This document shows, piece after piece, positions 4,313 through 21,135 of a DNA stretch of 64,000 nt; within the stretch, counting starts at the first letter, position 1; every line of letters begins with the position of its first letter. A program made the position numbers and the translations under genes. The DNA comes from Candidatus Omnitrophota bacterium (lineage in GTDB: Bacteria > Omnitrophota > Gorgyraeia > Duberdicusellales > 4484-171). The notes under the pieces are model-generated. The model was not told the origin of the DNA. It did no database searches and saw nothing but the letters and a program-made list of their open reading frames with translations. Location: positions 24,116 to 88,115 of the forward strand of contig JAQUWY010000001.1 of assembly GCA_028692655.1 (NCBI GenBank). The letters are read 5' to 3'.

Positions 4313-5257
4313 ATGTCCTATATAGAATATAAGGGGTTTAGCCAGATTATGAAAAGATATCAACTAAGCGATAAGGAAAAGCTGGAAAAAGTATTGCTGG
4401 AAACGGGTATTTCCCGCTCTGAGCTTGCTCGGCGCTTGGAGGTGGATTATAAGACTGTTTATCGCTGGCTGGATAAAGAGGTTAAGCCTCACCCAGCCCA
4501 GGCTCAGGATATTGACCAGCTTTTTAAAGAATATGTTGACTTGAGGGAGATAGTGCTGCAATTGCAAAATAAACTAAAAAGCCCCATGCATATCTTAAAA
4601 GGCAATCAGGTTATCCGGGAAAAATTTCTTTTAGAGATGACTTATCACTCTAACGCCATTGAGGGAAGCCGGATGACCGTAAAAGAGACCCAGAGGGCTT
4701 TTGACGGCAAACAGGTACGGGGCAAGGAGATGTTTGAAGTATTAGAGGTAATAAACCATAAAAATGCACTACAGTTTTTATTAGAAAATATCCGGTCAGG
4801 CTTTAAAATTGATAGCAATTATATCTTTCAATTGCACAGAACAGTAATGTATAATTTTAATAATAAATTGCCCGGAAAATACAGAACCGGCCATGTCAAC
4901 TTGCTGAATACTGAAAAAGCGCTTCCATCCGCCCAGGAAGTTCCTTTGAGGATGGGTAAGTTAATCAAGAATATCAACAATTACGGTAAGGATGCGATAA
5001 GTAAGATTGCCCGCGACCATTATGAATTTGAAGCCATTCATCCTTTTTTTGACGGAAACGGCAGAGTAGGCAGGCTGATAATGATAACCCAGCTTTTAAT
5101 TAAAGGGTTTGCGCCGGCAATTGTCCAGGTTGAGGATAGGTATAAATATTATATGGCTTTGAGCAAGGCTGATTTTGGTAATTTTGAAAATATGGTGCAA
5201 GTGGTTTGTGATAGTATTGTGAAAGGCTATAGGTTGTTAACGGGCAGCATTAAATAG
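4313..5257 (+). CDS. Fic family protein (Fic/Doc AMPylation fold) with N-terminal HTH-like region
   Basis: Canonical Fic motif HPFFDGNGRVGR at residues ~240-251. sigma70-like promoter ttgcaa-17-tacaat at 4259-4287. Alternative start at 4349 has the better SD (aagggg). Confidence 0.8.
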   Translation: MSYIEYKGFSQIMKRYQLSDKEKLEKVLLETGISRSELARRLEVDYKTVYRWLDKEVKPHPAQAQDIDQLFKEYVDLREIVLQLQNKLKSPMHILKGNQVIREKFLLEMTYHSNAIEGSRMTVKETQRAFDGKQVRGKEMFEVLEVINHKNALQFLLENIRSGFKIDSNYIFQLHRTVMYNFNNKLPGKYRTGHVNLLNTEKALPSAQEVPLRMGKLIKNINNYGKDAISKIARDHYEFEAIHPFFDGNGRVGRLIMITQLLIKGFAPAIVQVEDRYKYYMALSKADFGNFENMVQVVCDSIVKGYRLLTGSIK

Positions 5258-5465
5258 GGACAGCGACCATTTTCTTAGAAATTCTAAGGTCTCTATTAAA
5301 TCTCTGCGCAATTATTGTTTTTTCTGCGTAACGAATCTTTATTTTGTTTTGTGTTTCTGTTAAGTAAACGGCTTAAGGAATGAGGCTTTAACGAAACAGA
5401 TTGACATATACGAAAAAGCTAATATAATGGATTTGTGTCCAAAATTTTAGAAAGTTGAGGAACCT

Positions 5466-6002
5466 ATGCTAAAAGAGGTATTTTATAGTACGAGTGCCCA
5501 AAAAGTCTTATGTTTCCTTTTGGCTAATCCTGAAAAGAGATTTTACGATAGGGAAGTCTCAAGGCTTACGAAAATAGGTCGAGCAGCCGGTAATTATTCG
5601 TTGCGTACTTTGATAGCGACAGGCATTGTTAAAAGGGAAAAAAGAGGCAGGATGTATTTTTACCATGTGAGCCTCGATGATCCAATTATAAGGCAGTTAA
5701 AAATAACTCAGAATCTCATCAACATTAAGCCATTAGCTGACAAATTAAGAGATATTTCTCTGAAGATAGTTCTTTATGGAAGCTCCGCAGGCGGGACTAA
5801 TCACGCAGAAAGCGATATAGATCTGTTTGTCCTTACCCGGGATGTTAAGAAGGTCAAGGATATCGTTTATAAGAGCTCTCTTAAGCAAAAGCTTCAGCAC
5901 GTAGTTACAACTCCACAGGACTTGATTAAACTAAAGAAAGATAATCCCGTATTCTATAAGGAAGTTTCCAGCGGGATAGTTCTCCACGAGGAGAAAAGAT
6001 GA
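5466..6002 (+). CDS. minimal nucleotidyltransferase (MNT) with N-terminal winged-helix, antitoxin-type
   Basis: NTase signature LYGSSAGG...ESDIDLFVL (GS...DxD). Stop overlaps the start of the downstream HEPN ORF (ATGA). Confidence 0.75.
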   Translation: MLKEVFYSTSAQKVLCFLLANPEKRFYDREVSRLTKIGRAAGNYSLRTLIATGIVKREKRGRMYFYHVSLDDPIIRQLKITQNLINIKPLADKLRDISLKIVLYGSSAGGTNHAESDIDLFVLTRDVKKVKDIVYKSSLKQKLQHVVTTPQDLIKLKKDNPVFYKEVSSGIVLHEEKR

Positions 6003-6430
6003 GCATTGAGTTCCAAAAGGCCATAGAGAAGAAACGGATATTACACTTTGCGCCAGGGAAAAATCAGGTTAAGAAAGAGCTTCTGGAGGCAGAAAACGAC
6101 TTATCCGAGGCGTTTAATAGGTTTGAGAGTGAAAAATACAAATACGCTACTATTACCGGCTACTATTCGATGTTTCATTCTGCCAGGGCCCTTATTTACT
6201 CAAAGGGATATCGTGAGAAAAGTCATTATTATCTGCTGGTTGCTTTAAACAGCCTTTTTGTAAACGCGGGGATCTTGTCTGAGGAGATAACCTCAGAATT
6301 TCATGATGCTATGGTTTTACGCGAGGATGCCGATTATCACGGCAATTTTACTAAAGAAGGCGCGGAAGCAGTGCTCAAAACAGCAAAGGAATTTTTGGCT
6401 ACTGCTAAGACTGTCTTAAAAACCAAATAA
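5999..6430 (+). CDS. HEPN domain protein (toxin-type partner of the MNT)
   Basis: 143 aa. R-x4-H HEPN motif in LREDADYHG. Translationally coupled to the upstream NTase, the classic HEPN/MNT arrangement. Confidence 0.7.
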   Translation: MSIEFQKAIEKKRILHFAPGKNQVKKELLEAENDLSEAFNRFESEKYKYATITGYYSMFHSARALIYSKGYREKSHYYLLVALNSLFVNAGILSEEITSEFHDAMVLREDADYHGNFTKEGAEAVLKTAKEFLATAKTVLKTK

Positions 6431-6601
6431 GATGAAAAGGGGGCAGATGTTAATGCTCAACAATTGGGTAATTCTTTTGATATGGTATAATGCCATAAAT
6501 TAAAGGAGAACCTAATGCAACACTCACAACAAATTATTGAAAAGAGTCTTCAGCTTGTTTGTGCGGTGTGCAAATTGTTTTAAACAGATAAGGAGGGTTA
6601 T

Positions 6602-6928
6602 ATGGAAGAAAAAAAATTCACTGAGGTAGAAATTAAGGAAGGTGCGCCTTTTGCGGCATTGTCTTATGTGTTTTTTTTGTGGATACTGACTTTTATTTTC
6701 AAAAAAGACAATGCCTTTGCTTTATATCATGCCCGCCAGGGGATAGTGATATTTATAGGAGATGTAATCTGTTTGACATTTATGTTTATACCGATTATAG
6801 GCGTTTTGTTTGGGCTGCTGGCATTAATTTTAGCGGTAGTCCGTGTGTATGGAATTCTACTCTCACTTACCGGCAAGAGCGACAAAATTTATGTAATTAG
6901 TGATTTGGCAGAAAAATTAGTTGTATGA
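6602..6928 (+). CDS. small integral membrane protein (DUF4870-like)
   Basis: 108 aa, two or three hydrophobic helices. Motif ALSYVFF...ALYHARQG typical of DUF4870-type proteins. SD aaggaggg upstream. Confidence 0.5.
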   Translation: MEEKKFTEVEIKEGAPFAALSYVFFLWILTFIFKKDNAFALYHARQGIVIFIGDVICLTFMFIPIIGVLFGLLALILAVVRVYGILLSLTGKSDKIYVISDLAEKLVV

Positions 6929-6985
6929 GGCTGAGAAACCAAAAAACGAAAAAACAGAAAAACAAGAAAACGAAAAGCATAAAGC

Positions 6986-7369
6986 ATGAGTGATATATTT
7001 CGCTTTCAGAAGTTTCCAGTATATAATGAAGCGAAATTATTTCGTCGGAAGTTAAAAGATTTAAGCAGTAGCAAATTTCCCAAGCAAGAACAGTATTGTT
7101 TGCTTTCTCAATTATGGAGAGCCTTAGATTCCATTTTACTTAATATTGCTGAGGGTTCGGATAGATACTCTGATATAGATTTTAGCAGGTTTTTAAATAA
7201 TGCGCTAACTTCTCTGAATGAAGCAGTCGCGTGCTTAGATTGTGCTTTGAGTGACTCTTATATTAATCCGGAGGAATACAGAAATTATCTTTTGGAGGCA
7301 GAGAGCCTATCTAAACAATTAAAAGCTTTTTCTTCAAAGGTAAGAAAATCGGATAGTAAGCAAAAATAG
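6986..7369 (+). CDS. four-helix-bundle protein (23S rRNA intervening-sequence protein family, TIGR02436-like), copy 1
   Basis: 127 aa. Family hallmarks: FPK.E.Y.L..QL.RA..SI..NIAEG and later ...NEA...L. Flanked by A-rich and T-rich low-complexity inverted repeats. Confidence 0.8.
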   Translation: MSDIFRFQKFPVYNEAKLFRRKLKDLSSSKFPKQEQYCLLSQLWRALDSILLNIAEGSDRYSDIDFSRFLNNALTSLNEAVACLDCALSDSYINPEEYRNYLLEAESLSKQLKAFSSKVRKSDSKQK

Positions 7370-7493
7370 ATTTTATTTATGTTTTTCCTGTTTTTAAAGC
7401 TTTTAGTTTCTTAGTTTTTATGTTTTTGGGTTTTTCAGTTTTTATGTCGTTATATCAAAAAAGTACAATTCAACGAAGGAGAAGAGGTTAATT

Positions 7494-8216
7494 ATGGCAA
7501 ATAAGAAAAGAAAAATAATTTATCCTGTCTCCGGGCCCAGCCAGCTGACTACAACTTTTGATGAGCATTTTGCCAGTTCAGACACCTGGAGAGTCTTCAG
7601 AATTATGAGCGAGTTTGTTGACGGGTTTGAAAGCCTTTCCCGGGTAAAACACGGAGTCTGTTTCTTCGGTTCACGCTGCACCCCAAAGAAACACCCCTAT
7701 TACAAATGCGCGTATGAAGCCGCGCGCCTATTAGCCAAAAAAGGTTATAGCATTATTACCGGTGCCGGCGGAGGCATAATGGAGGCTTCCAACAAAGGGG
7801 CTGATGAAGCCGGGGGGGTATCAGTGGGGCTAAATATACTTATACCTCAAAAGCAAAACGCCAACCCCTATGTTAATTATCTTATGGAATTCAGGTATTT
7901 TTTTGTCCGCAAAGTTATGTTTACCAAGAATTCCCATGCTTCAATCGTCTTTCCCGGCGGTTTTGGCACGCTTGATGAGCTTTTTGAGACATTAGCGTTG
8001 GTCCAAACGCACAGAGTGCCCCGGATTCCTGTGATCTTGGTCCATAAAGAATACTGGCAGGGGCTCGTTAATTGGCTCAAAACAAAGCTAATACAGGAAG
8101 GGACTATAGAGAAAAAAGATTTAGATTTGTTTGTGGTAGTTGACACTCCTCAGGAAATTTTATCGGCAGTAGAAAAGTTTTACGGCAAACCTAAAACTAA
8201 AAAAAAGGCAGAATAA
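7494..8216 (+). CDS. LOG family / TIGR00730 Rossmann-fold nucleotide-binding protein
   Basis: ITGAGGGIMEASNKGA and PGGFGTLDELFE motifs, the LOG-family signatures. Confidence 0.8.
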   Translation: MANKKRKIIYPVSGPSQLTTTFDEHFASSDTWRVFRIMSEFVDGFESLSRVKHGVCFFGSRCTPKKHPYYKCAYEAARLLAKKGYSIITGAGGGIMEASNKGADEAGGVSVGLNILIPQKQNANPYVNYLMEFRYFFVRKVMFTKNSHASIVFPGGFGTLDELFETLALVQTHRVPRIPVILVHKEYWQGLVNWLKTKLIQEGTIEKKDLDLFVVVDTPQEILSAVEKFYGKPKTKKKAE

Positions 8217-8515
8217 TGACTGGTCTGATCAGAGTCTGGAAAGAGCTGGATTTACAGGATATCGAAAAAAATCTAATTGTCGTAGGCGAGCTTTCCAGCG
8301 AATGTTTTGCATGCCACAAGATTGGTATTGATTTGCATTCTATACAATGTCCCGGCTGCGGTATATATTTCAAATATGTAGGTTTCAGGCGGAGAGTTCA
8401 GGCGGGATACTTGAAAAAGCTTAAAGACCAGCATCCTCAACTTTTATTCATAGATTTTGAAGATTTCAAAAAATCTCTGGGTAAGCGCGATGCCCGGAAA
8501 TTACTGGATATCTAG
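8216..8515 (+). CDS. hypothetical zinc-ribbon protein
   Basis: 99 aa. CxxH...CPGC cysteine pairs. Start overlaps the stop of the upstream gene (TAATG). Confidence 0.4.
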   Translation: MTGLIRVWKELDLQDIEKNLIVVGELSSECFACHKIGIDLHSIQCPGCGIYFKYVGFRRRVQAGYLKKLKDQHPQLLFIDFEDFKKSLGKRDARKLLDI

Positions 8516-8814
8516 TGGAGATATTCTTGCAACTCCTTCTTTTCTAACCTCTTGATATTGAATAATTTACCTAAAATTATCTGCAAAGCTCTACGTTTTA
8601 TTTTTGATATATACCATCCGAATTCTTAGGATTTTCCCCCTCATGGTAAAAAGACAAAAAGATTTTTATATTCCCAAAGCTCTATTTTTGCGCTAAAATA
8701 TTACATAATTTAGCGTAAGCTGGGGAGCGTACATTCAAAAGAGCCGTTTCGGATGTCTGCTTCCAGATAAATAAAAAGGTTTCATAATGGCAAGTCAATG
8801 TGATTATTTAAGTT

Positions 8815-9561
8815 ATGAAGAAATTTAAAGATAAGGTAATAGTCGTTACCGGAGGCTCACGGGGTATTGGCAAAGCCTGCTGTGAGGCTTTTGCCAGAGA
8901 AGGTGCCAATATAGTTTTTACTTACAACTCAAGTCAAGAGGCTGCCAAGAGCCTGAAACAGGAAATAGAAACTTCAGGTTCGCAAGTTTTAGCCTTACAG
9001 TTAGATGTGAAAAAATATGACGCCTGCCGCAAATTTGTTGAAAAAGTTTTAGACAAATTCCAGAAAATAGACGTGCTCATCAACAATGCCGGGATCATCA
9101 ACGATAAAGCCCTTATGATGATGAGCGAAAGCGACTGGCTGGATGTTATCAATACCAACCTTAACGGCACCTTTAACGTAACCAAGAACTCTATAATCTC
9201 CTTTATGAAGCAGAGAAAAGGTAATATTATCAATATTTCTTCCTTGAGCGGGATTCTGGGCCTGCCGCGCCAGGCTAATTATGCTGCCTCAAAAGGCGGG
9301 ATGATTTCTTTTACGCGCTCCCTGGCTAGGGAAGTAGCCCCGTTAAATATAAGGGTCAATGCCATAGCCCCCGGTTTCATACAAACCGATATGATAAAGG
9401 GCTTGAGGGAAGATTACGTTAAAGATGTTCTGCCGCAGATCCCCTTAGGGCGCTTCGGTGAGGCAAAAGAAGTGGCTCAAGTTGCTTTATTTTTAGCGGG
9501 AGATGAGTCGGACTATATAACCGGACAAGTCTTAAGGGTTGACGGGGGGTTGGGAATGTGA
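8815..9561 (+). CDS. fabG: 3-oxoacyl-ACP reductase (SDR family)
   Basis: VTGGSRGIGKA Rossmann motif. NNAG. Y-x3-K catalytic pair in YAASKGG. 248 aa. Confidence 0.8.
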   Translation: MKKFKDKVIVVTGGSRGIGKACCEAFAREGANIVFTYNSSQEAAKSLKQEIETSGSQVLALQLDVKKYDACRKFVEKVLDKFQKIDVLINNAGIINDKALMMMSESDWLDVINTNLNGTFNVTKNSIISFMKQRKGNIINISSLSGILGLPRQANYAASKGGMISFTRSLAREVAPLNIRVNAIAPGFIQTDMIKGLREDYVKDVLPQIPLGRFGEAKEVAQVALFLAGDESDYITGQVLRVDGGLGM

Positions 9562-9980
9562 GGCCGCAGATGATCACTGAAGGAAAAGCGCAGATGATCA
9601 CTAATAAGAAAGATTATATTTACAAAGACTTAACTTATAGAGTAATCGGGTGTTTGTATGTTGTGCATAAAGAATTAGGCAACGTCCATAAAGAAATTAT
9701 TTATCATAAAGCTTTGGCGATAGAATTAAAGAGCAAAAATATAGCATTTGTTGACGAAAAATCCATTGATGTAAAATATAAAGGTAAAAAAATAGGAGCA
9801 TACAGGCCTGATTTTATAATAGAGGATAAAGTTATTCTAGAAATCAAGGTTTCACCGGCTATAACCAGAGCTATGCAGGATCAAGTTTATTTTTATGTAA
9901 AGGGAACTAAATACAAGTTGGTTTTATTGGCTAATTTTGGAACAAGCAAAGTTGGTATCAAAAGATTAATTTATTCATAA
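9558..9980 (+). CDS. GxxExxY family protein (PD-(D/E)xK-like), copy 1
   Basis: KDLTYRVIGCLYVVHKELG...GAYRPDFIIEDKVILEIKV matches the TIGR04256-type GxxExxY family. True start is probably internal (MITNKK...). Flanked by CAGATGATCAC / GTGATCATCTG inverted repeats. Confidence 0.7.
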   Translation: MRPQMITEGKAQMITNKKDYIYKDLTYRVIGCLYVVHKELGNVHKEIIYHKALAIELKSKNIAFVDEKSIDVKYKGKKIGAYRPDFIIEDKVILEIKVSPAITRAMQDQVYFYVKGTKYKLVLLANFGTSKVGIKRLIYS

Positions 9981-10030
9981 TCTGCGATTATCTGTAGTAT
10001 TCAATTTGTGATCATCTGTGTAAAAAAGAT

Positions 10031-11257
10031 ATGAAAAAGAAAGCTGTAATAACCGGCATTGGGGTGATTTCGCCTTTAGGTAAGAGCAAGGAAGAGTTTT
10101 GGGAAAATCTGTTTAAAGGTGAATCTGTATTCCATGAGATTGCCTTGTTTGATACTGAAGGCCTTAAGGTTAAAAAAGCCGGTGAGATTTGCAATTTTGA
10201 GCCGAAAGCCATATTGGGAGATAAAGGCCTAATGGATGTTGACCGGGCCAGCCTTATTTTAATGTCGGCGGCAAAACTTGCCCTTGATGATGCGGGTTTT
10301 AAAATTACCCAGGAAAATACTCATTCTACAGGGGTATCAATTGGAACAACTTTTGGAAGCCTTTATAGTATTTCTAAGTTTGACCAAGAGTCGTTAACCG
10401 AAGGCCCTCGATATGTGAACCCTTCTATATTTCCCAGCACAGTCGGTAATTCTCCGGCCAGTCGCCTGGGTATTCGTTACAATATTAAAGGGTTTAATAC
10501 AACCATATCAACCGGAATGTGCGCCGGGCTTGATGCCCTGGATTATTCCCGGGATTTTATTAATTTAGACAGAGCCGATACTGTTGTATCCGGAGGCTTG
10601 GGAGATTTAAACATTCAGACCTTTTTAGGTTTTTATAAACTGGGGTATCTTGCCGGCTTAAAGTATGGCTCAACGGAAGAGATGTGTCCTTTTGATAAGC
10701 GAAGAAACGGGATTATCCTTTCCGAAGGAGCGGTTATTTTTATTATTCAAAACAAAGATGCAGCCAATAGCCAGAAAAAAAGAATTTATGGAGAAATCTT
10801 AGGAACGGGCTCCTGTTTTGAACCGGGTAAGTTTTATAAGTATAGCCGTAAGGGTGAGGGGATGAAAAGGGCTATGGAGCTTGCCTTGGAAGACTCAGGT
10901 ATTAAGGCCTGTGATATAGACTGCATTTTCGCTAATGCCAATTCCACTAAAGACGCTGATTTAATCGAATCAAAAGCCATAAAAGAGGTTTTCGGGGAAA
11001 ACGTTCCTGTCACGGCAGTAAAATCACTCGTAGGAGAAACCTTTAGCGCTTCAGGTACGATGTCAGTTTTGGCAGCACTGGGAGCTTTTGAAAAGCAAAG
11101 CATTCCCGCAATAGCAAATTACCGCGAGAAAGATGAAGATTGCGATTTAGATTATGTAGTCGGAGAATCTCGCAAGAAAAGCATATCAAAAGTAATGATA
11201 AATTCATTCGATCCTAACGGCGCTAGTAGTTGTATGATTGTAGGTAAACCTGTATGA
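10031..11257 (+). CDS. beta-ketoacyl synthase family protein lacking both catalytic His (CLF-like but retaining the active-site Cys)
   Basis: Thiolase-fold KS with active-site Cys in TGMCAGLDA. The HGTGT box is replaced by NANST and the downstream GH by GE. Confidence 0.65.
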   Translation: MKKKAVITGIGVISPLGKSKEEFWENLFKGESVFHEIALFDTEGLKVKKAGEICNFEPKAILGDKGLMDVDRASLILMSAAKLALDDAGFKITQENTHSTGVSIGTTFGSLYSISKFDQESLTEGPRYVNPSIFPSTVGNSPASRLGIRYNIKGFNTTISTGMCAGLDALDYSRDFINLDRADTVVSGGLGDLNIQTFLGFYKLGYLAGLKYGSTEEMCPFDKRRNGIILSEGAVIFIIQNKDAANSQKKRIYGEILGTGSCFEPGKFYKYSRKGEGMKRAMELALEDSGIKACDIDCIFANANSTKDADLIESKAIKEVFGENVPVTAVKSLVGETFSASGTMSVLAALGAFEKQSIPAIANYREKDEDCDLDYVVGESRKKSISKVMINSFDPNGASSCMIVGKPV

Positions 11258-11308
11258 CACGGATGAACACGGATTTTTAAGAAACACGGATATACACGGA
11301 TAGATATT

Positions 11309-11683
11309 GTGGGAAAACTTGAGCAAGAAGATTTGACCTATAGAATAAGAGGCGCGATTTTCGAAGTGTATAATATATTAGGTCCGGGGTTTAAAGAGAT
11401 AATCTACCATAACTCTTTACGAGAAGAATTTGATAAGCGAAAGATTAAATATGCAGAGAAAAAAAGAGTTAAGATTGACTACAAAGGTAAACAAGTAGGT
11501 TTGTATGAACCGGACTTTGTAGTTGAAGGCAAGGTGATTATAGAGACAAAAGCGGTGGAAGTTATGCCTAAGGCGTTTGAAAAACAGTTGTATAATTATC
11601 TGAAAGCTACAGAGTATAAAATCGGAATTCTGGTTAATTTCGGTAGTGAAAAACTGGATATGAGGCGCCGTATCTACGGATAA
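11309..11683 (+). CDS. GxxExxY family protein, copy 2 (GTG start)
   Basis: LTYRIRGAIFEVYNILGPG...GLYEPDFVVEGKVIIETKAV, paralog of 9558..9980. Flanked by CACGGAT x4 upstream and ATCCGTG-type repeats downstream. Confidence 0.7.
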   Translation: MGKLEQEDLTYRIRGAIFEVYNILGPGFKEIIYHNSLREEFDKRKIKYAEKKRVKIDYKGKQVGLYEPDFVVEGKVIIETKAVEVMPKAFEKQLYNYLKATEYKIGILVNFGSEKLDMRRRIYG

Positions 11684-11816
11684 AATTATCCGTGACAGAG
11701 ATGCAGACACACAAGGATTTAAAATGGATGGATATAGATGAATATATTCTGTGTTAATCTGTATATTCAATCCGTGGGAATCCGTGTATGCAATCTGTGT
11801 GTATCCGTGTAATAAA

Positions 11817-12254
11817 ATGAAACAACTAAACATAGAAGAAATCCAGAAAATACTACCCCAGAGGTATCCGTTTTTGCTTATTGATAAAATAATAGAAATT
11901 GAGCCAGGCCAAAGAGTGGTAGCGATTAAGAATGTAAGCAATACCGAGGGGTTTTTTTCGGGGCATTTTCCCGGTAAACCCGTTATGCCAGGAGCTTTGA
12001 TAATTGAGGCAATGGCGCAAGCCTCGATAGTTCTTTACTGGAGTAAATATAAAGATGAATTAGTTAAAACACCTAATTATTATCTTGTTTCGGTCAAGGT
12101 AGATTTAGAAAACCCGGTTTACCCAGGTGATAGTTTAATGATTGAGTCTAAAGCGCTAAAAATTATTCCCAAGGCCGGTTTTGTTGAAGTGAACGCATCT
12201 ATAGACAAAACTATTATTGCCAAAGGCCAGGCTACATTTGCGATAGAAAGATGA
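11817..12254 (+). CDS. fabZ: 3-hydroxyacyl-ACP dehydratase
   Basis: LPQRYPFLLIDKIIE...GHFPGKPVMPGALIIEAMAQ hot-dog fold FabZ signature. ATG at 11817. The track ORF extends upstream through the repeat region. Confidence 0.85.
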   Translation: MKQLNIEEIQKILPQRYPFLLIDKIIEIEPGQRVVAIKNVSNTEGFFSGHFPGKPVMPGALIIEAMAQASIVLYWSKYKDELVKTPNYYLVSVKVDLENPVYPGDSLMIESKALKIIPKAGFVEVNASIDKTIIAKGQATFAIER

Positions 12255-13456
12255 AAAAAAGAATAGTAATAACAGGCTTAGGTTTGGTAACTTCCATAGG
12301 AATTGGTAAAGACGATTTTTGGAAAGCGCTCATTTCCGGAAAGTCCGGGATATCAGAGATAGACTCTTTTGATACTTCAGAACACACTACTCATTTTGGC
12401 GGCCAAGTTAAGAATTTTAAAGCTGAAATGTTTTTAGATAGAAGGAAAATAAAAGCAATGGCTAGAGCGTCACACTTAGCCATTGCTGCGACAAAATTAG
12501 CAATTGAAGATGCCAATATAGGCCTTAAAAAGCGAAACACTAATAAAGTTGCAGTTATGTTTGGGACTACTGGTGGAGAAATCCAGGAAATGGAAAAAAT
12601 GGATATCATCTGGTTAAAACAAGGCAAAGAAGCTGTGGGCTTAAAATCAATAGTTCAATATCCGGTAAATAACATTTCAGCTAATGTAGCTAAGGAATTA
12701 AAACTTAAAGGCTTTAATAGAATGTTTACCACTGCTTGTGCCGCCGGAAATTATGCCCTTGGCTATGGGCTTGACCTTATGAGGTTAGGAAAAACCGACA
12801 TAGCTGTTGTTGGCGGTTCAGATGCTTTTTCTTATCTTTCCTTTACCGGCTTTAATCAGGTTCGGGCGGTTGCGCCTTTAAAGTGCCAGCCTTTTGATAA
12901 AAACAGAAAAGGTATGATTCCCGGGGAAGGCTCAGGCGTTTTAATTTTAGAAACCTTAGAGTCAGCCATGGAGCGAAAAGCCAATATATATGCTGAAGTC
13001 TTAGGTTATGGGCTAAGCTGTGATGCTTACCATATGACACAACCCAATGTTGAAGGGGTAAGCAAATGTATGCAAAAAGCTTTAGATGATTCAGGCATAA
13101 AGCCTGAGGAAGTAGATTATATTTGTGCGCATGGAACAGGAACCCGCCATAATGACAAAGTTGAGTGTGCAGCGATAAAAAACGTCTTTGGAGATAGAAA
13201 AATAGCAGTCAGCTCTATTAAGTCAATGCTTGGCCATTGCATGGGTGCGGCTTCGGCAATCGAGATGGCAGCTTGTTGTTTGGCAATAAAGGAAGGGATT
13301 CTGCCTCCTACGATAAGTTTTGAAACACCTGATTTAGAATGTAATATTGATTGTGTTCCTAATAAAGCAAGAAAACAGAAAGTAAAAGTTGTTCTAAACA
13401 ATGGTTTTGCTTTTGGTGGAAATAACTGTTGTGTAGCAATTAGAAAATTCAATTAA
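12251..13456 (+). CDS. fabF: beta-ketoacyl-ACP synthase II
   Basis: Cys in TTACAAGN. HGTGT present (CAHGTGTRHND). GHCMGAAS. Overlaps fabZ by ATGA. Confidence 0.85.
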   Translation: MKKRIVITGLGLVTSIGIGKDDFWKALISGKSGISEIDSFDTSEHTTHFGGQVKNFKAEMFLDRRKIKAMARASHLAIAATKLAIEDANIGLKKRNTNKVAVMFGTTGGEIQEMEKMDIIWLKQGKEAVGLKSIVQYPVNNISANVAKELKLKGFNRMFTTACAAGNYALGYGLDLMRLGKTDIAVVGGSDAFSYLSFTGFNQVRAVAPLKCQPFDKNRKGMIPGEGSGVLILETLESAMERKANIYAEVLGYGLSCDAYHMTQPNVEGVSKCMQKALDDSGIKPEEVDYICAHGTGTRHNDKVECAAIKNVFGDRKIAVSSIKSMLGHCMGAASAIEMAACCLAIKEGILPPTISFETPDLECNIDCVPNKARKQKVKVVLNNGFAFGGNNCCVAIRKFN

Positions 13457-13467
13457 AGGAGGAGACT

Positions 13468-13734
13468 ATGTCAGAAAATGCGTTTGAAGGATTAGGAAAA
13501 GAAATTCAGCAGTTAATTGCCGAAGTTACTGGAAAAAGTATGGAGGATTTAAGACCCGAAGCTAATTTTTGGGAAGATTTGGGTATTGATTCAATTAAGG
13601 CCATTGAGATAACAGTAGCCATAGAGAGAAAATACAAGATAAGGATAGGCGATGAGCAAATACCACAAATAATGACCGTTGGCAAAGCTGTTGAGGTGGT
13701 TCGACAAGCTCTGGAGAAAAAGAAAAATGCATAA
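13468..13734 (+). CDS. acpP: acyl carrier protein
   Basis: 88 aa. Phosphopantetheine-attachment region LGIDSIKAIE (conserved Ser). SD aaaggagg upstream. Confidence 0.8.
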   Translation: MSENAFEGLGKEIQQLIAEVTGKSMEDLRPEANFWEDLGIDSIKAIEITVAIERKYKIRIGDEQIPQIMTVGKAVEVVRQALEKKKNA

Positions 13735-15025
13735 AAAAAGAATAGTTGTTACTGGAATTGGACCCATGGCTTCAGTAGGTGTGGGGAAGGATTTATTTTG
13801 GAAGGGAATTTTAGATAAGAATATTAATATTAGTTTAGAAAAAACCTGTATAGACTCAGAACTTTGGGATGAGTTTTATCTTCATAAAATAAATAATTTT
13901 TCCATAAACGACTTCGGCATCGATAAAGAGAGATTAAATGACATAAAAGAATGGAAAGATGGAGGAAGTGTTTTAGAATTAGATTATCTTATTGCCCTGG
14001 TCAAACTAGCATTAGACGACAGCAAACTCAATTATAATGCTAGCAATAATGACATTGGTTTAGTCCTAGCTCATGAGAATTTAGGCATAATGCAGTTTGC
14101 TTATCAAATAAGTGATTTAGCATACGAAGGCCTGATTGATAAAAAAAGATCTGATCTATCTAAGAGAGATTTTTTTGATGAGTTTTACCGTAAATTTTTA
14201 AAGATTGGGTACGATATTCAAACTTTTCCTGATTTATTTCATATCGCAAGGGTTTTTAATATTCGTAATTATTCTTTATTCATAAATAATGCCTGTGCTT
14301 CAGGGCTTTATGCGTTAGAGGCAGCGAGCAATGTAATAAATAGTGGCCAGGCTAAAGCTATGGTTATCGCTGTCTCAGACTGTCCAGAAATATATAAATA
14401 TATTTGGTTTAAAAGTTTGGGGATATATTCTGTTGATGGAATATGCCGGCCATTTTGTAAGAATAGCAACGGCCTTGTTTTTGGCGACGGGGGTGTGGGC
14501 ATGGTGGTTGAAGATTTAGAGCATGCCAGAGAAAGAGGTGCGGAGATTTATGCCGAATACTTAGGGGGAGGTTTTGATTTGGAAGGTTGGAAAATTACCG
14601 TTCCTCAGCTAGGCAGTGATTCTTATCAAAAAGCAATGCAGAAAGCATTCGCGCAAAGTAATGTTAATAAGGATGAAATTGATTTGCTTTGTCCGCATGG
14701 GGTAGGCTCACAAGTCATAGATTATTATGAAGCTAAGGCTATAACAGATATATTTGGTAAAAATCCGCAAAAACCCTTAATGACTACATTTAAGCCTTAT
14801 GTTGGGCATAATTTAGGAGGTAGCGCGCTTTTAGAAACTGCGATACTTTTACTTTCCTTAAAAAATAATGTTATTCCGCCTACTTTAAATTATGATGAGC
14901 CTGACCCTAAATTTAATATTTCTTTGGTTAAAGAAAAAAAAGAAGTAGAGCTAAAAACTGTTATGAAAGCGTGCTGTGCTTTTGCAGGGTTTAACGCGGC
15001 GGCGATATTTAGAAAAATTGACTGA
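13727..15025 (+). CDS. beta-ketoacyl synthase family protein (atypical, with N-terminal insertion)
   Basis: Cys in NNACASGLYA. His in CPHGVGS and in VGHNLGGSA. Overlaps the ACP stop. About 430 aa. Confidence 0.7.
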   Translation: MHKKRIVVTGIGPMASVGVGKDLFWKGILDKNINISLEKTCIDSELWDEFYLHKINNFSINDFGIDKERLNDIKEWKDGGSVLELDYLIALVKLALDDSKLNYNASNNDIGLVLAHENLGIMQFAYQISDLAYEGLIDKKRSDLSKRDFFDEFYRKFLKIGYDIQTFPDLFHIARVFNIRNYSLFINNACASGLYALEAASNVINSGQAKAMVIAVSDCPEIYKYIWFKSLGIYSVDGICRPFCKNSNGLVFGDGGVGMVVEDLEHARERGAEIYAEYLGGGFDLEGWKITVPQLGSDSYQKAMQKAFAQSNVNKDEIDLLCPHGVGSQVIDYYEAKAITDIFGKNPQKPLMTTFKPYVGHNLGGSALLETAILLLSLKNNVIPPTLNYDEPDPKFNISLVKEKKEVELKTVMKACCAFAGFNAAAIFRKID

Positions 15026-15027
15026 CT

Positions 15028-16578
15028 ATGAAAAAAACCGACTATGATGTAATTATTATTGGCGCGGGAATTGGTGGTTTGGTTTCTGGCAATATTTTAG
15101 CTAAAAATGGATTAAGGGTTTTATTATTGGAGAAAAATAACGTACCGGGCGGTTCAGTTTCTACATTTTATAAAGATGGTTACCCCATTGACATAACTCA
15201 TTCTTTTTGTGGAATGAAGCAAGGTTCGTTTATCAGGAAGATTTTTGATTATCTAGATATTTATAGAAAGTTAGAACTTATTGAGTTAAAAAAAGCTTTT
15301 ATATATATATCTGAGCATCGAAATGAACCAATCTTTTGTTATACAGATACAGAACGATACAAAAAAGAACTTAAATCCCATTTTCCATATGAAAGGAAAA
15401 GTATAGATGGATTTTTTAGAGAAATTGAATTAATCTGGAATGAAGAGATTCTAAAAAGTTATTACAACCCTTCCTTTTATCAGTTATTAAGTTACCCTTT
15501 TCTATTTCCTCGTCTTTGTAAATACAGAAATTATACTTTCGAAAGGTTTCTTAGTATTTTTACTGGTTCTAAAGAATTGAAAGAAGTGCTGTCTGTGGGC
15601 TGGCCTTATTTAGGTTTAGACAGATTTTCGGTTTCTGCTTTATACATGGTGTGTTTAATAATGGCCTATTGGAAAGAAGGCAGTTTTTACGTTAAGGGAG
15701 GGGTTGGAAAAATTGCTGAAGCATTAGCTTGTAATTTTAAAAATATGGGAGGCTATCTTCTTTACAATGTAGATATTGAATCTATAATAGTGAATGACAA
15801 AAGAACAGCGTTGGGCGTAAGGGATAAAAATAATGAAGTTTATCGTGGAGAAAAGATAGTCTCAAATGTTGATACTAAAAAAACATTTTTTGAATTAGTA
15901 GGACGTACATTTCTATCAAAAAAAACTTTGAGAAAGATTCAAAAGTCGATAGCATCTTGTTCTCTTATTCAAGTTCATATAGCGGCGGAGGCTCAAATTA
16001 AGGAAGATTACCTATCCGCAGGCTCAATAGTATTACCGTTTCGTATCGATTTAGAAGAAACCATAAAGGCTTTATTAGGTGTTGACACAAGCCCCTTTGG
16101 TAATTCTTCAATGATGGTAAGCATTAATTCTCTGGATTGTTTTTCGAATGATAGTAAAGAAAATGAATATATGTTCAATGTGGCATGGTTCCCCGCACAT
16201 TATAGTTTATGGAAAAAACTTATGGTTTTTTACGGGAGGAGGAAATATGAGATTTTGAAAGAAGAAATTGCTCAAAAAGTCATCAAGATATTACAGAAAT
16301 CAAAAATCATTGGTAGATTTAAATTCAGCAATGTATTGACGCCTCTTTCTGTAGAGAATTGGCTTAATGCATCTGAGGGAGCAATCTATGATTTTGCCGC
16401 TATTCCTCAACAAATGCTTCTTTCACGTTTCAAACATACAACATGTATAGATAAACTGTATCTTGTAGGTGCAAAAACATTTCCTGGCGCCGGTATCGCC
16501 GGCGCTTTTTGTTCTGCCGTCTGTCTTTCAGATATTCTTTTAAAAGGAGGCCTTTCCAAGGGCAAATTTACGTTATAA
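15028..16578 (+). CDS. FAD-dependent oxidoreductase, phytoene-desaturase (CrtI/COG1233) family, paralog 1
   Basis: N-terminal dinucleotide fold DVIIIGAGIGGLVSGNILAKNGLRVLLLEKNNVPGG. 516 aa. C-terminal GAGIAGA motif. Confidence 0.7.
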   Translation: MKKTDYDVIIIGAGIGGLVSGNILAKNGLRVLLLEKNNVPGGSVSTFYKDGYPIDITHSFCGMKQGSFIRKIFDYLDIYRKLELIELKKAFIYISEHRNEPIFCYTDTERYKKELKSHFPYERKSIDGFFREIELIWNEEILKSYYNPSFYQLLSYPFLFPRLCKYRNYTFERFLSIFTGSKELKEVLSVGWPYLGLDRFSVSALYMVCLIMAYWKEGSFYVKGGVGKIAEALACNFKNMGGYLLYNVDIESIIVNDKRTALGVRDKNNEVYRGEKIVSNVDTKKTFFELVGRTFLSKKTLRKIQKSIASCSLIQVHIAAEAQIKEDYLSAGSIVLPFRIDLEETIKALLGVDTSPFGNSSMMVSINSLDCFSNDSKENEYMFNVAWFPAHYSLWKKLMVFYGRRKYEILKEEIAQKVIKILQKSKIIGRFKFSNVLTPLSVENWLNASEGAIYDFAAIPQQMLLSRFKHTTCIDKLYLVGAKTFPGAGIAGAFCSAVCLSDILLKGGLSKGKFTL

Positions 16579-16588
16579 TAACAATATT

Positions 16589-18022
16589 ATGAAAAAAAAG
16601 CGTGATTACGATGTTGCGATTATTGGTTCTGGTATAGGGGGCTTAGTTTGCGGTTGCTATTTGGCAAAAGCGGGCTTGAAGACAGCAATAATTGAAAAAC
16701 ATCATTCTCCGGGAGGGTATTGCACTTCTTTTAAACGAAGAGGGTATAGATTTGATACATCTGTGCACTATATAGGGGGGATAAAAAAAGGAGCGCTAAG
16801 TGAAATATTGATGAATTTAGAGATGGAAACCTCATTAAAGTTTCATCAAGATGATCCCTCAGACGGCATTTTTTTACCGGATACGTCAACTTATATTAGA
16901 GCCAATTCTCAGGATACAATTAAAGAATTTAAGAAGAGTTTTCCTTCGGAGAGCAAAGACATTGAAAGGTTTTTTAGATTCATCATGCAAAATGATATCG
17001 CATCTATTTATAGAAAAACGATAGAAATTACTTTAGAAGAATTACTAAATGATTTTTTTAGTGATACGAATCTTCGAGCAACCATAGGAATTCCTTTTTT
17101 AGGAAATATGGGTTTGCCGCCCGGTAAAATTTCTGCTTTTGCTGCCATTGTTTTCTTTCGGGAATTTCTATTAGACCCAGGATATTATCCTGTTGGAGGG
17201 ATGCAAGCTTTTGCTGACTGTTTAGCTAACAGATTTAAAGGCTATGGTGGCGATTTAGTTTTGTCGAAAGAAATTTCCAAAATAATATTAAATAACAATG
17301 TTGCCGAAGGGGTAGTGACTTCATCTGGAAAAGAAATCAAGTCCAAATTCGTAGTTTCTAATATCGATGCTACGCGAACTTTCAAACATCTTATTAAGTC
17401 TAAAACCAAAGAGGCGCTAGTCGTAGACAAGATGGTGCCATCTAATTCTATTTTTGCTGTTTATGTAGGCCTCAAAAGAACTTTTAAAGATAGCTTTAAA
17501 AATCTTTATGATACTTGGCTATTCAAAAATTATGATTTAAATGATAGCTATAAATATTTGACAAAGAACATAGCTGAAGGCCAAATTTCTGGAGTCATGG
17601 TATCATTTCCTTCCTTCAAAGACCTTTCTTTTACAAAGACATCTAAGTTTACTGCCGAAATTTTTACAATGGCCCCATATGTGAGTGAAAATTTTTGGGC
17701 TATCAATCAAGAATTAGTAACTGAGGCGGTTTTAAACTTTGTAGACGAAAATATTCCAGGTTTCAAAAAATACGTAGATTTTAAGTTAGTCGCGACTCCT
17801 CACACGTATTATAGGTATACTATGAATAGGGAAGGAGCTGCTTTTGGTTGGGCGTCAATCATAAACCAGATAAAATCTTCTTTGTTGCCCCAAGTTTCGT
17901 CAGTCAAGAATTTATTTGTAGTTGGGCATTGGTGCACTATGGGAACGGGGCAAGGTGGTGTGTCAACCGTGGCTTTAGCTGGGAAAAAGGTTTACGAAAG
18001 GATAACTAACTTGTTACTATGA
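16589..18022 (+). CDS. FAD-dependent oxidoreductase, phytoene-desaturase (CrtI/COG1233) family, paralog 2
   Basis: DVAIIGSGIGGLVCGCYLAKAGLKTAIIEKHHSPGG. 477 aa. Tandem to paralog 1. Confidence 0.7.
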   Translation: MKKKRDYDVAIIGSGIGGLVCGCYLAKAGLKTAIIEKHHSPGGYCTSFKRRGYRFDTSVHYIGGIKKGALSEILMNLEMETSLKFHQDDPSDGIFLPDTSTYIRANSQDTIKEFKKSFPSESKDIERFFRFIMQNDIASIYRKTIEITLEELLNDFFSDTNLRATIGIPFLGNMGLPPGKISAFAAIVFFREFLLDPGYYPVGGMQAFADCLANRFKGYGGDLVLSKEISKIILNNNVAEGVVTSSGKEIKSKFVVSNIDATRTFKHLIKSKTKEALVVDKMVPSNSIFAVYVGLKRTFKDSFKNLYDTWLFKNYDLNDSYKYLTKNIAEGQISGVMVSFPSFKDLSFTKTSKFTAEIFTMAPYVSENFWAINQELVTEAVLNFVDENIPGFKKYVDFKLVATPHTYYRYTMNREGAAFGWASIINQIKSSLLPQVSSVKNLFVVGHWCTMGTGQGGVSTVALAGKKVYERITNLLL

Positions 18023-20184
18023 ACTTTTTTACGTTTTCTTCTATATTTTCAACCTTTTCAACTTTCGCTATAGCTTTATTACTTTTCGTTAAAGTAAAAA
18101 ATAAAAGTCCAAGCTATAATTTTGCCTACACTTCTTTAGCTTCAGGAATTTGGACCTTGGGAGCGTGGGGATTTTCGACAACTACTTCGTATGATACAGC
18201 GTTGATATGGATCAAGGTTGCTCACATAGGAACAATTTTAACCCCTGCTTTCTTTTTCCATTTCGTTTCGGGTCTTACGAAAAAATATAATAAATTCCTA
18301 ATTTTGTTAAATTATTGTCTTGCAGCGCTGTTTGTTTTTTATACTTTTTTTTATAAAGATTTTATTCATATCAAATATGTTTTTGGTCAATTCTATTTTC
18401 CCATCTATGTTAATCCAGCTTCTGTATTATTTTATATAAGTGTTTACGGAATATTTCTCCCGTATGCGTTTTTTCTATTAATAACTTTTTTTAGAACTAC
18501 CAGGGGCATTTTACGAAATCAGCTTAAATATTTTATAATTGGTCTTATAGTAGCGTGGTCAGGTCCTGAAGGGTTATTCTTGTTTGCCTTAGGGGTTCCG
18601 ATTTATCCTTGTTCGAATATTCTTATAGGTGTCTATCCTTTAATATTTGCTTACGCTATCCTTAAATACCATCTAATGGATATCCGAATTTTTATCTCTC
18701 GGGCGGCGGCGTTTCTCATCAGTTATCCTTTCTTTTTAGGAGTTCCCTTTATATTCGCTTATCGAATGGAGCCGGTTCTGTTTCCTTTATTGGGAATGAA
18801 TTGGTGGCTTGTGCCTACAAGCTTAATTGTTTTCTTTGCCACCCTTGCCCCTTTGGCCTACGGGCAGATAAGAAGCAAAATGGAAAATGCCTTTTTGGCT
18901 GAACAAAAAAGATACCAGAAACTTTTACTTCAAGCTGCAAGCGGTATGGCGACAGAACATGATCTAAATCGTCTGGCAAAGCTGATTGTTTATATTGTAA
19001 AGAAGGCCGTAAGAATTGATTTTGCGGCTATTTTCCTTGATGATAAATCCAACGAGATTTATCGGCTCAAGGCTTATCGTGATAGAGGAAGCAAAATATC
19101 AAAGGATATGGTTTTTCTTTATGAACATCCCCTTGTGCAATATTTAAAGAAGCAAAAAGAACCTGTGCTTTATGAAGAACTGCCTCCTGAGTTAAGAGAA
19201 TCTTTAGGTGAATTCTCCAAAACCAGCCTTATTGTTCCTTCCGGTATTGAAGATAATCTGCTGGGCTTTGTGTTTTTTGGTGAAAAACTTAATCGCCAAC
19301 CTTATACTAACGATGATATTGATGTGTTTAAAATACTTTCCCATCAGGCGGCTTTGGCTATAGAAAATTGTCTTTTTATGGAGGAATCGCGCCAGGCTCA
19401 GGAGAAAATATTTGCCGCTGAAAAACTGGCTTCAATCGGAGGCATCGCTGACGGTGTGGCTCATCAGATTAAAAACCGTTTGAATCAATTTTCTGTTGCC
19501 AGCGGAGAGCTTCGCTATGAAATAAAAGATTTTGCCCAGAAGCATTCCGAGCTGATATTGAAGAATCCTGACCTTAAAAAAACCTTTGATTATTTGGCCG
19601 AAATCGCTACATCTTTTCTTAATAATGTCAAAAGGACTGACGGCATTGTTAAGGGAATACTTAATTTTGCAAGGGTGGAGGAGAAAGAGACTTTTTTCAG
19701 CAAGTTTTCTTTAAAAGAGGTGATAGATGTTTCTACTGAACTTCTGCAGATAAAGCATGAAATTTCCCAGGTACCTCTAAAGCTTAATCTAGGTTCTTCA
19801 GATATTATTTATGGTGTTAAAGCCCAAATGACCGAAGTCGTGTATAATATGCTCGACAACGCCTATGAGGCTATACAGGATAAAGTTATGCGTCTTGAGC
19901 CGGAAGAAAAACTGAAATTTTCTCCTGAAATTAAATTACGCTTGCTTCACGAGCAATCAATAGACGTTATAGAAATCTCTGATAATGGTATTGGAGTCAG
20001 CAAAGAAAATGAGCGCAAAATATTCGCTCCGTTTTTTACCACAAAATCTTCATACAAATCAGGCACAGGCATTGGAATGTATGTTGTAAAGCGTATGGTG
20101 GAGGAAAATCATAAAGGAAAAGTTTGGTTTGAATCTACGCATATGAAAGGAATCAAGTTTTTTGTGGAATTGCCACGGAAATAA
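18019..20184 (+). CDS. sensor histidine kinase with large multi-TM N-terminal domain and GAF-like region
   Basis: About 300 aa of hydrophobic helices. H-box GVAHQIKNRLN. HATPase_c motifs DNGIGV and GTGIGMYVV. Overlaps the upstream gene stop. Confidence 0.8.
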   Translation: MNFFTFSSIFSTFSTFAIALLLFVKVKNKSPSYNFAYTSLASGIWTLGAWGFSTTTSYDTALIWIKVAHIGTILTPAFFFHFVSGLTKKYNKFLILLNYCLAALFVFYTFFYKDFIHIKYVFGQFYFPIYVNPASVLFYISVYGIFLPYAFFLLITFFRTTRGILRNQLKYFIIGLIVAWSGPEGLFLFALGVPIYPCSNILIGVYPLIFAYAILKYHLMDIRIFISRAAAFLISYPFFLGVPFIFAYRMEPVLFPLLGMNWWLVPTSLIVFFATLAPLAYGQIRSKMENAFLAEQKRYQKLLLQAASGMATEHDLNRLAKLIVYIVKKAVRIDFAAIFLDDKSNEIYRLKAYRDRGSKISKDMVFLYEHPLVQYLKKQKEPVLYEELPPELRESLGEFSKTSLIVPSGIEDNLLGFVFFGEKLNRQPYTNDDIDVFKILSHQAALAIENCLFMEESRQAQEKIFAAEKLASIGGIADGVAHQIKNRLNQFSVASGELRYEIKDFAQKHSELILKNPDLKKTFDYLAEIATSFLNNVKRTDGIVKGILNFARVEEKETFFSKFSLKEVIDVSTELLQIKHEISQVPLKLNLGSSDIIYGVKAQMTEVVYNMLDNAYEAIQDKVMRLEPEEKLKFSPEIKLRLLHEQSIDVIEISDNGIGVSKENERKIFAPFFTTKSSYKSGTGIGMYVVKRMVEENHKGKVWFESTHMKGIKFFVELPRK

Positions 20185-20268
20185 TATTTTATGATTACGT
20201 AGTCTGGTATATGTTGACCGTTGAAAGGTTGCGTAGCTGGAAACGTTAAAGGTTTAGCGTTAATCGTT

Positions 20269-20700
20269 ATGGAAGATAAAAAAATAAGAAGCTTTCACGA
20301 TTTAGATGTATATCAAAATTCATATGGAGCCATGCTGATAGTTTATAAAGAAATAATGCCTAAATTACCCAAAGAAGAGGAATATGACCTTAAAGATCAG
20401 CTTAGAAGGTCAACTAAAGCTATTCCAAGATTGATAGCCGAAGGGCATTCTAAAAGACATCAAAAGAGGGGATTTCAGAAATATATAGACGATTCTTTAG
20501 CAGAGTCTAACGAGACAATTGTTTCACTAAGTCAGGCTCGCGATTTGTACGCAAATTACGTAGATACTAAATTATGCAATGAACTGATTGATAGATACGA
20601 TAAAATAAGCAGGCAGTTATATAATTTAGCTTTGGCTTGGGATAAATTTAATAGGCGCAGCCGTAAAACGACAAACGATTCGAGCTACACAACCGTATAG
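20269..20700 (+). CDS. four-helix-bundle protein (23S rRNA IVS protein family), copy 2
   Basis: FHDLDVYQNSY...LRRSTKAIPRLIAEGHSKRH...AESNETI. ATG at 20269. The track ORF starts at 20221. Flanked by ggttgcgtagctgg / cgagctacacaacc inverted repeats. Confidence 0.75.
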   Translation: MEDKKIRSFHDLDVYQNSYGAMLIVYKEIMPKLPKEEEYDLKDQLRRSTKAIPRLIAEGHSKRHQKRGFQKYIDDSLAESNETIVSLSQARDLYANYVDTKLCNELIDRYDKISRQLYNLALAWDKFNRRSRKTTNDSSYTTV

Positions 20701-20766: not shown

Positions 20767-21135
20767 ATGAGCAAAGTATTAGTAATTGATGATGAAGTGG
20801 AAGTGGTAGATTTTCTATTTAATTTTCTCAGGAGATTCAAAATTCAGGTTGAGAAAGCTGTGAGCGGTAAAGGGGCTCTTGAGGCTTTTATGAAGGTCAA
20901 GCCCGATTGGGTATTTTTGGACATCAAAATGCCGGATATAGACGGTTTCGAAGTTTTAAAAGCGATAAAATCTATGTCGCCGGAAGTCAACGTTATAATG
21001 ATAACCGGAAAGGAAGATAAAGAATCCCAGGATAAGGCCAGGAAGCTTGGAGCATTTGATTACATAATTAAGCCTTTGGATTTAGAGCAGCTACATAAGA
21101 AAATTCAGGTTAATATACTGGATAAAAATAATTAA
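20767..21135 (+). CDS. response regulator receiver domain protein (CheY-like, stand-alone)
   Basis: VLVIDDE. Phospho-acceptor in LDIKMPDIDGF. Conserved K in IIKP. 122 aa. Confidence 0.85.
   Translation: MSKVLVIDDEVEVVDFLFNFLRRFKIQVEKAVSGKGALEAFMKVKPDWVFLDIKMPDIDGFEVLKAIKSMSPEVNVIMITGKEDKESQDKARKLGAFDYIIKPLDLEQLHKKIQVNILDKNN

Follow-up and report, generated by a model that had tools for sequence, protein, structure and literature searches.

We analyzed a 64,000-nucleotide stretch of DNA from a Candidatus Omnitrophota bacterium (assembly GCA_028692655.1, contig JAQUWY010000001.1, positions 24,116 to 88,115), hereafter the window, in which a single operon on the + strand, with short or overlapping gene junctions, encodes proteins related to those of fatty-acid synthesis (Table 1). 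Our subject is the gene at 10031 to 11257 in this operon, whose product has the ketosynthase (KS) fold and is called here the 10031 protein. A preliminary description, made from the sequence without database searches, had taken it for a KS that keeps the acyl-accepting Cys but lacks both catalytic His residues. We find it much more probable that the protein is a non-catalytic subunit resembling a chain-length factor (CLF), a relative of amxFabFmut from anammox bacteria, that would form a heterodimer with the KS encoded at 12251 and shape its acyl tunnel, in a 'ladderane-like' operon that has no radical SAM gene.

The preliminary assignment to the KS fold is borne out by several lines of evidence. 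The gene is a single intact open reading frame (ORF) of 408 codons, and a Pfam search finds both KS domains, PF00109 and PF02801, in its product. An AlphaFold2 (AF2) model built on 49 homologues has a mean predicted local distance difference test (pLDDT) score of 90.4 and superimposes on B. subtilis FabF with a TM score of 0.94 in a Foldseek search of the PDB. The top matches in that search are canonical FabFs; the library predates 9s5h, so these matches speak to the fold of the protein and not to its family. The only low-confidence part of the model is residues 110-140 (pLDDT 56-63), which contains a helix-loop-helix motif. The gene is under purifying selection, with a dN/dS of 0.12 against its closest relative (91% identical); together with the intact ORF and hundreds of conserved homologues, this value rules out a pseudogene or decaying copy. 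The protein is not a canonical FabF: it scores 288.7 bits against the TIGR03150 FabF model, where the cutoff is 493.75, and the catalytic triad is absent. An NCBIfam match to the cispentacin acyltransferase subunit AmcF was also rejected, as its 129 bits fall short of the cutoff of 325 and lie well below the scores of the FabF models.

Table 1 Genes of the operon and key residues of the 10031 protein (positions in the window).
Feature	Position	Strand	Remarks
FabG-type 3-oxoacyl-ACP reductase	8815..9561	+	First operon gene; TIGR01830 310 bits, above cutoff
GxxExxY / PD-(D/E)XK_3 small gene	9558..9980	+	Between FabG and the KS-like gene; TIGR04256, PF13366
KS paralogue, predicted catalytically inactive, amxFabFmut / CLF-like family	10031..11257	+	408 aa; both KS Pfam domains, residues, AF2 fold
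Phe134, Thr137, Val138	10430-10444		Tunnel-lining residues of the 10031 protein
Met163	10517-10519		Nucleophile position of the 10031 protein
Cys164	10520-10522		+1 position of the 10031 protein
Asn302	10934-10936		First His position of the 10031 protein
Lys331	11021-11023		Lys retained in the 10031 protein
Glu336	11036-11038		Second His position of the 10031 protein
Second GxxExxY / PD-(D/E)XK_3 gene	11309..11683	+	Between the KS-like gene and FabZ
FabZ-type dehydratase	11817..12254	+	Start is the ATG matching 145-aa homologues
Active KS	12251..13456	+	TACAAG / HGTGT / GH; 53% identity to amxFabF2 9s5h_B
Acyl carrier protein (ACP)	13468..13734	+	PF00550
Third, divergent KS	13727..15025	+	Intact triad (NACASG, PHGVGS, GHN); insertion of ~20-30 aa in the dimer-interface helix-loop-helix
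CrtI/phytoene-desaturase-like FAD oxidoreductase 1	15028..16578	+	TIGR02734 below cutoff, PF01593
CrtI/phytoene-desaturase-like FAD oxidoreductase 2	16589..18022	+	Of the two, nearer to the 'PDH' of anammox Cluster I
7TM-GAF histidine kinase	18019..20184	+	PF16927, PF13492, PF02518

The catalytic positions were read from five alignments: HMMER alignments to 9s5h_B, 9s5h_C and 4jrh_A, and two MAFFT alignments, the first of 123 sequences, including 120 close homologues and the two other KSs of the window, and the second of 124 sequences, including 119 KS-fold ORFs from 80 genome loci. The motifs in question are TGMCAGL (residues 161-167), NANST (302-306) and GE (335-336). HGTGT of active KSs falls on NANST and GH falls on GE in every alignment made, with HMMER against both 9s5h chains as well as in both MAFFT sets, and the replacement of both catalytic His residues described at first thus stands. 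Among the 120 close homologues the first His is Asn in 119 and the second is Glu in all; ANANST, Lys331 and Glu336 are nearly invariant in this set. In the wider triad-less family of the 124-sequence alignment, the first His position varies among Asn, Ser, Thr, Gly, Cys and Ala. The preliminary description had raised the chance that the His motifs were merely shifted by misalignment; they are correctly aligned, and the residue that had been misplaced is the Cys.

In all five alignments, the catalytic Cys of active KSs falls on Met163 within an ungapped segment, and Cys164 occupies the +1 position. TG-M-C-AG of the 10031 protein lies over TA-C-A-AG of both the 12251 KS and Brocadia amxFabF2, and with V. 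cholerae FabF (4jrh) HMMER places ...ISTACTTGL... over ...istgmcagl... without a gap. In the HMMER alignment to 9s5h_C, Met163 pairs with the Val of NGVTSS, which the crystallographers state replaces the catalytic Cys (10.64898/2026.05.19.726425). The nucleophile column of the 124-sequence alignment is Cys in 69/69 triad-intact KSs and in none of the 44 triad-less relatives, which carry Met, Phe, Ile, Val, Glu, Leu, Thr or Ala there. At +1, active KSs have Ala or Ser, and the triad-less relatives any of Cys, Thr, Ser, Ala, Pro, Val and Ile; within the closest subfamily this residue is Cys in 97 of 120 sequences and Ser, Gly or Thr in the other 23. Because the nucleophile aligns with Met163 and Cys164 sits one residue off, the protein has lost the whole triad (Cys to Met163, His to Asn302 and His to Glu336), and the retained acyl-accepting Cys is a register error of a single residue. 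Such a protein would not decarboxylate malonyl groups on its own, as the preliminary description had proposed, and it would not be expected to condense alone either.

The loss of all three residues recurs in a family for which structures exist. By HMMER, the best solved relative of the 10031 protein is 9s5h_C (E 5.5e-99), followed by 9s5h_B and then by canonical FabFs. Entries 9s5h and 9s5i match a May 2026 preprint on two anammox 'Cluster I' FabF homologues, of which amxFabF2 is active and amxFabFmut is triad-less (10.64898/2026.05.19.726425). The 10031 protein and Brocadia amxFabFmut are reciprocal best BLASTP matches, with 41% identity over their full length and 326 bits; identity to active KSs is 32%, with 227 bits to 9s5h_B. 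All 44 of 44 triad-less sequences, these two among them, form one clade in a neighbor-joining tree. The tunnel residues Phe134, Thr137 and Val138 are kept in 40-41 of the 44 family members and are variable in active KSs. The fold, the missing triad, the reciprocal match and common clade, the co-encoded KS and the tunnel residues all place the 10031 protein, as far as sequence can assign it, in the amxFabFmut / CLF-like family of inactive FabF paralogues. Since loss of the entire Cys-His-His set is the pattern of CLFs and of anammox amxFabFmut, the configuration is not the unusual one that it had been taken for.

The resemblance to amxFabFmut (Kuste3606 and the Brocadia fulgida protein, chain C of 9s5h/9s5i) extends to several details. 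In both, the Cys and both His residues are replaced, with Asn for the first His and Glu for the second, and the Lys is kept; the Phe, Thr and Val of the tunnel are conserved; the solved fold nearest to each is that of B. subtilis FabF; and the gene is encoded together with amxFabF2-, amxFabZ-, amxACP- and PDH-like genes. They differ at the nucleophile position, which is Met in the 10031 protein and Val or Thr in amxFabFmut, and in gene order, the 10031 gene lying upstream of FabZ and the KS whereas the amxFabFmut gene lies directly downstream of the KS in anammox bacteria. The hosts differ as well: Omnitrophota are not known as ladderane makers.

What the anammox proteins do is known from experiment. 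Both from Kuenenia and from Brocadia, amxFabF2 and amxFabFmut co-purify as a complex named amxFabFhet, and malonyl-ACP decarboxylation and acetoacetyl-ACP formation occur only with both subunits present (10.64898/2026.05.19.726425). In the crystals (9s5h/9s5i) the two form a heterodimer like that of a KS and its chain-length factor, in which F135, T138 and V139 of amxFabFmut line the tunnel of amxFabF2 and affect its chain-length preference (10.64898/2026.05.19.726425). A helix-loop-helix motif that is disordered in the crystal of the amxFabFmut homodimer becomes ordered only in the heterodimer (10.64898/2026.05.19.726425). The poorly predicted residues 110-140 of our model are this same motif, and we count their low pLDDT in favor of a heterodimer for this reason.

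By homology to the Brocadia proteins, then, the 10031 protein would itself have no condensing or decarboxylating activity and would pair with the 12251 KS. Its helix-loop-helix, with Phe134, Thr137 and Val138, would become ordered against the 12251 subunit and form part of the wall of that subunit's single productive acyl tunnel. The pairing would make the 12251 KS competent for malonyl-ACP decarboxylation and for elongation on the cluster's own ACP, and through the tunnel the 10031 protein would set the active subunit's chain-length preference. Together with FabG, FabZ and the two CrtI-like flavoenzymes, the pair would constitute a fatty-acid or polyketide operon of Omnitrophota. The preliminary description had offered two roles, acyl carrier or partner subunit; the second, as partner of another KS, is the most likely one, and the first loses its footing with the nucleophile Cys.

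Several observations point to the 12251 KS as the likely partner. This KS and amxFabF2 (9s5h_B) are reciprocal best matches (E 1e-141), and it keeps the amxFabF2 tunnel and gate residues A164, F203, M337 and F394 (preprint numbering). Across the triad-less family, 30 of 42 loci also contain a FabF2-type KS; of the 12 that do not, 8 lie on short or cut contigs. Net charges counted along the segments of the helix-loop-helix and of the interacting helix did not tell the subunits apart, not even for the Brocadia pair, for which an electrostatic asymmetry has been reported, so that this count carries no information on the pairing.

Some points weigh against this assignment. The remaining four loci without a FabF2-type KS are long (L005, L007, L012 and L017, in our numbering of loci): each has a mut-like gene with FabG and FabZ, and no FabF2-type KS follows within ~5-10 kb downstream. 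The cluster may be split in these genomes, or else the inactive subunit's partner lies elsewhere. In the window itself, the mut-like gene stands upstream of the KS, with FabZ and an inserted gene between them, while the anammox gene is directly downstream. The third KS, at 13727, is found together with the mut-like gene in nearer relatives and might serve as partner instead or as well. The model also does not account for the strictness with which ANANST, Lys331 and Glu336 are kept in a pocket that should be dead. Finally, the proposed heterodimer of these Omnitrophota proteins is carried over by homology from the Brocadia pair. As a separate observation, the same four loci, all from Omnitrophota, also have no ACP or PDH gene within ~5-10 kb downstream, and a DNA ligase gene follows in L007.

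The 13727 KS was the partner suggested by the preliminary description, and a CLF-like role of the 10031 protein toward this KS, instead of or besides the 12251 KS, is the alternative that fares best, though we regard it as improbable. KSs of this type are encoded in the same operon as the mut-like gene in the nearer relatives L081 and L084 and share many contigs with it, and the unusual insertion in the dimer-interface helix-loop-helix might disfavor homodimers. Most lineages, however, pair the mut-like gene with a FabF2-type KS and have no 13727-type KS, and these include the anammox bacteria, where the pairing has experimental proof. Sequence identity of the 13727 KS to the 10031 protein is only 25%, and to amxFabF2 28%. 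KSs of its type were seen only in the nearer relatives: none of the genes in the 80 loci of the broader scan had it as best match, so what the triad-less protein does across its family cannot require this KS. The better candidate is the 12251 KS, the orthologue of amxFabF2, for which partnership was shown by experiment. The 13727 KS itself belongs to a large, uncharacterized Omnitrophota family that scores below every NCBIfam cutoff; its gene always adjoins the ACP gene in close relatives and is split into two ORFs in L084.

A second alternative would make the 10031 protein a homodimer with a non-KS catalysis of its own, such as acyl coupling or modification, in a pocket formed by Asn302, Asn304, Lys331 and Glu336. 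Rattray et al. are said to have proposed in 2009 an acyl-chain coupling or modifying role for Kuste3606. The near-invariance of the pocket residues in the 120 close homologues and the low dN/dS would fit such a role, and S. brodae amxFabFmut can crystallize as a homodimer (10.64898/2026.05.19.726425). Against it, the first His position is varied in the wider family, and the isolated anammox protein showed no detectable activity, its tunnel being judged unlikely to be catalytic (10.64898/2026.05.19.726425); we consider this reading very improbable. Equally hard to credit is a His-less KS acylated on its Cys that holds or transfers acyl chains as the KS0 domains of PKSs do: the His residues are truly replaced and a Cys does stand in TGMCAGL, as in most of the closest subfamily, but it stands at +1, where other close homologues have Ser, Gly or Thr, most other family members have Thr, Ser, Ala, Pro, Val or Ile and active KSs themselves have Ala or Ser, and in crosslinking assays the acyl-ACP adduct formed on amxFabF2 only (10.64898/2026.05.19.726425).

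Two better-known classes of KS-related proteins help to place the 10031 protein. KS0 domains of trans-acyltransferase (trans-AT) polyketide synthases (PKSs) are non-elongating, with the Cys kept and the catalytic His lost; they are thus a known class with the arrangement proposed in the preliminary description. The 10031 protein differs from them in that its nucleophile Cys is gone and it is a free-standing FabF-like subunit, whereas a KS0 is a domain of a PKS module. The CLFs of type II PKSs (KS-beta proteins such as ActB, 1tqy_B, and ishigamide Iga12, 6kxd) are, like the 10031 protein, KS-fold paralogues without a catalytic triad whose genes accompany those of an active KS and a dedicated ACP, and a tunnel-shaping role like theirs would be expected for the 10031 protein. 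The ishigamide KS Iga11 (6kxd_A) is the second-best solved match of the 12251 KS. The residue at the nucleophile position of aromatic-PKS CLFs is typically Gln, in contrast to Met163, and by this mark the 10031 protein is not a KS-beta; its similarity to 1tqy_B (E 5e-37) is far lower than that to 9s5h_C, and unlike in CLF systems the surrounding genes are of fatty-acid-synthase type (FabG, FabZ), with no cyclases or aromatases.

The other genes of the operon also have anammox counterparts. Among solved structures, the window FabZ matches anammox amxFabZ (7qv0_A, E 3e-35) best, with canonical FabZs behind it, and for the ACP anammox amxACP (7qv0_D) comes second. Of the two CrtI-like oxidoreductases, the one at 16589 has 33% identity (251 bits) to the Brocadia PDH that adjoins amxFabFmut, and the one at 15028 has 26% identity to the Brocadia cluster PDH. 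FabG lies directly upstream of the mut-like gene in L081, L084, L014 and L031, and the FabZ homologue of L081 has ApeI/ApeP-like Pfam matches. The 7TM-GAF kinase likewise recurs after the PDH genes, in L003 (18210-20387), L030, L081 (17498-19654) and L084 (8994-11135); its conserved position downstream suggests that expression of the lipid operon is regulated. In the window, the kinase gene overlaps the second PDH gene at its stop codon, and an ORF resembling response regulators follows at 20767-21135.

The two GxxExxY genes that flank the gene for the inactive KS appear from these comparisons to be lineage-specific insertions. The same gene order without either of them is found in relatives at 62% (L081) and 55% (L084) identity, where the genes are absent at these positions and FabG, the mut-like gene and FabZ abut or overlap. 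In the closest relative, L082, both GxxExxY genes are 99.5% identical to those of the window at the nucleotide level. Nucleotide identity to L082 is 89% for the mut-like gene, 90% for FabZ, 81% for the 12251 KS and 94% for FabG, and reaches 96-99.7% for the genes upstream, at 4313-8515. This mosaic points to recombination, to gene conversion affecting the small genes or to a strain-chimeric assembly.

Elsewhere in the window we noted small genes that are scattered between operons as the GxxExxY genes are. One, at 6986-7369, is for a '23S rRNA intervening sequence protein', a small bundle of four helices whose L082 orthologue matches PF05635, and the small ORFs at 20221-20700 and 23022-23342 possibly resemble it, as judged by eye only. 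The window also contains tandem paralogous genes for outer-membrane porins of the alginate-export type (717-2033 and 2301-3617), a Fic gene with a nucleotidyltransferase/HEPN pair after it (4313-6430) and a zeta-toxin-like gene (26007-26642).

How far the operon corresponds to the ladderane-associated cluster of anammox bacteria depends on which genes are compared. Homologues of amxACP, amxFabZ, amxFabF2, amxFabFmut and PDH occur together in the window, in a different order, and FabG, the third KS and the second PDH gene go beyond the anammox Cluster I set. A B12-radical SAM gene follows PDH in the Brocadia, Kuenenia and Loosdrechtia loci; in the window none lies next to the PDH genes, tblastn found no match to it anywhere in the 64 kb, and no counterpart adjoins the PDH genes in the Omnitrophota loci examined. 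Without this gene, the window cluster falls short of a complete anammox Cluster I. It appears instead to be a cluster of the 'ladderane' type that antiSMASH reports, with function unknown, in non-anammox metagenome-assembled genomes (MAGs) of Omnitrophota and other phyla (10.1101/2022.12.20.521206), with which it shares an Omnitrophota host, a FabF-like pair and genes for FabZ, ACP and PDH-like proteins. That work stays at the level of annotation and takes up neither the inactive KS paralogue nor its residues and partner.

The triad-less family is not confined to Omnitrophota: our scan, with one genome per species and 80 genome loci, found it also in Nitrospirota, Planctomycetota (anammox and others), Acidobacteriota, Desulfobacterota and Actinomycetota. 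One of these loci, L042 from a Blastocatellia MAG (DASRDY010000236.1) binned as Acidobacteriota, has ACP, FabZ, KS, inactive KS, PDH and B12-radical SAM genes at ~5798-12000, and the radical SAM protein is 62% identical to the Brocadia enzyme. This is the complete anammox-type Cluster I outside Planctomycetota, and it could be due to lateral transfer or mis-binning. Among Omnitrophota, a gene resembling NAD_binding_4 fatty-acyl reductases lies between KS and PDH in L003, L008 and L014, and an alpha/beta-hydrolase gene holds this place in L011, L016, L025 and L033, which hints at a release chemistry that varies by lineage (alcohol or aldehyde versus free acid). Neither the reductase nor the hydrolase gene, which accompany the cluster in other lineages, was found in the window. 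As for what the window operon makes, the combination of FabG, FabZ, a KS/CLF-like pair, an extra KS and two CrtI-like flavoenzymes, with no FabI seen in the operon and no radical SAM gene, leads us to infer that the product is not a ladderane but an acyl chain with unsaturation or some other modification.

With the one-residue misreading corrected, there is no odd Cys-plus, His-minus ketosynthase at 10031. The protein is better seen as an ordinary triad-less subunit of the partner type, from a family whose anammox member was characterized structurally and biochemically in 2026, and its interest lies mainly in the context of its operon and not in the supposed unusual active site. Structural papers describe Cluster I, with its KS/CLF-like pair, FabZ, ACP and PDH, as exclusive to ladderane producers, despite which label the module recurs as a conserved operon in Omnitrophota, Nitrospirota, Acidobacteriota and Desulfobacterota. 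We tentatively raise the possibility, which we hold at somewhat less than even chances, that the module is an older and widespread lipid pathway that operates without the B12-radical SAM enzyme in Omnitrophota and several other non-anammox phyla, and in the window with an additional KS and a second flavoenzyme. If so, the operon would make a yet-unknown unsaturated or polyene-type acyl product, and it would represent a 'radical-SAM-minus' form of the ladderane pathway that occurs in nature and could reveal the ladderane precursor. The Omnitrophota loci, with no radical SAM gene next to PDH in those examined, separate the shared core of the pathway from the step that is likely to be specific to ladderanes, and they offer non-anammox systems in which the true substrate and product of the heterodimer may be sought.

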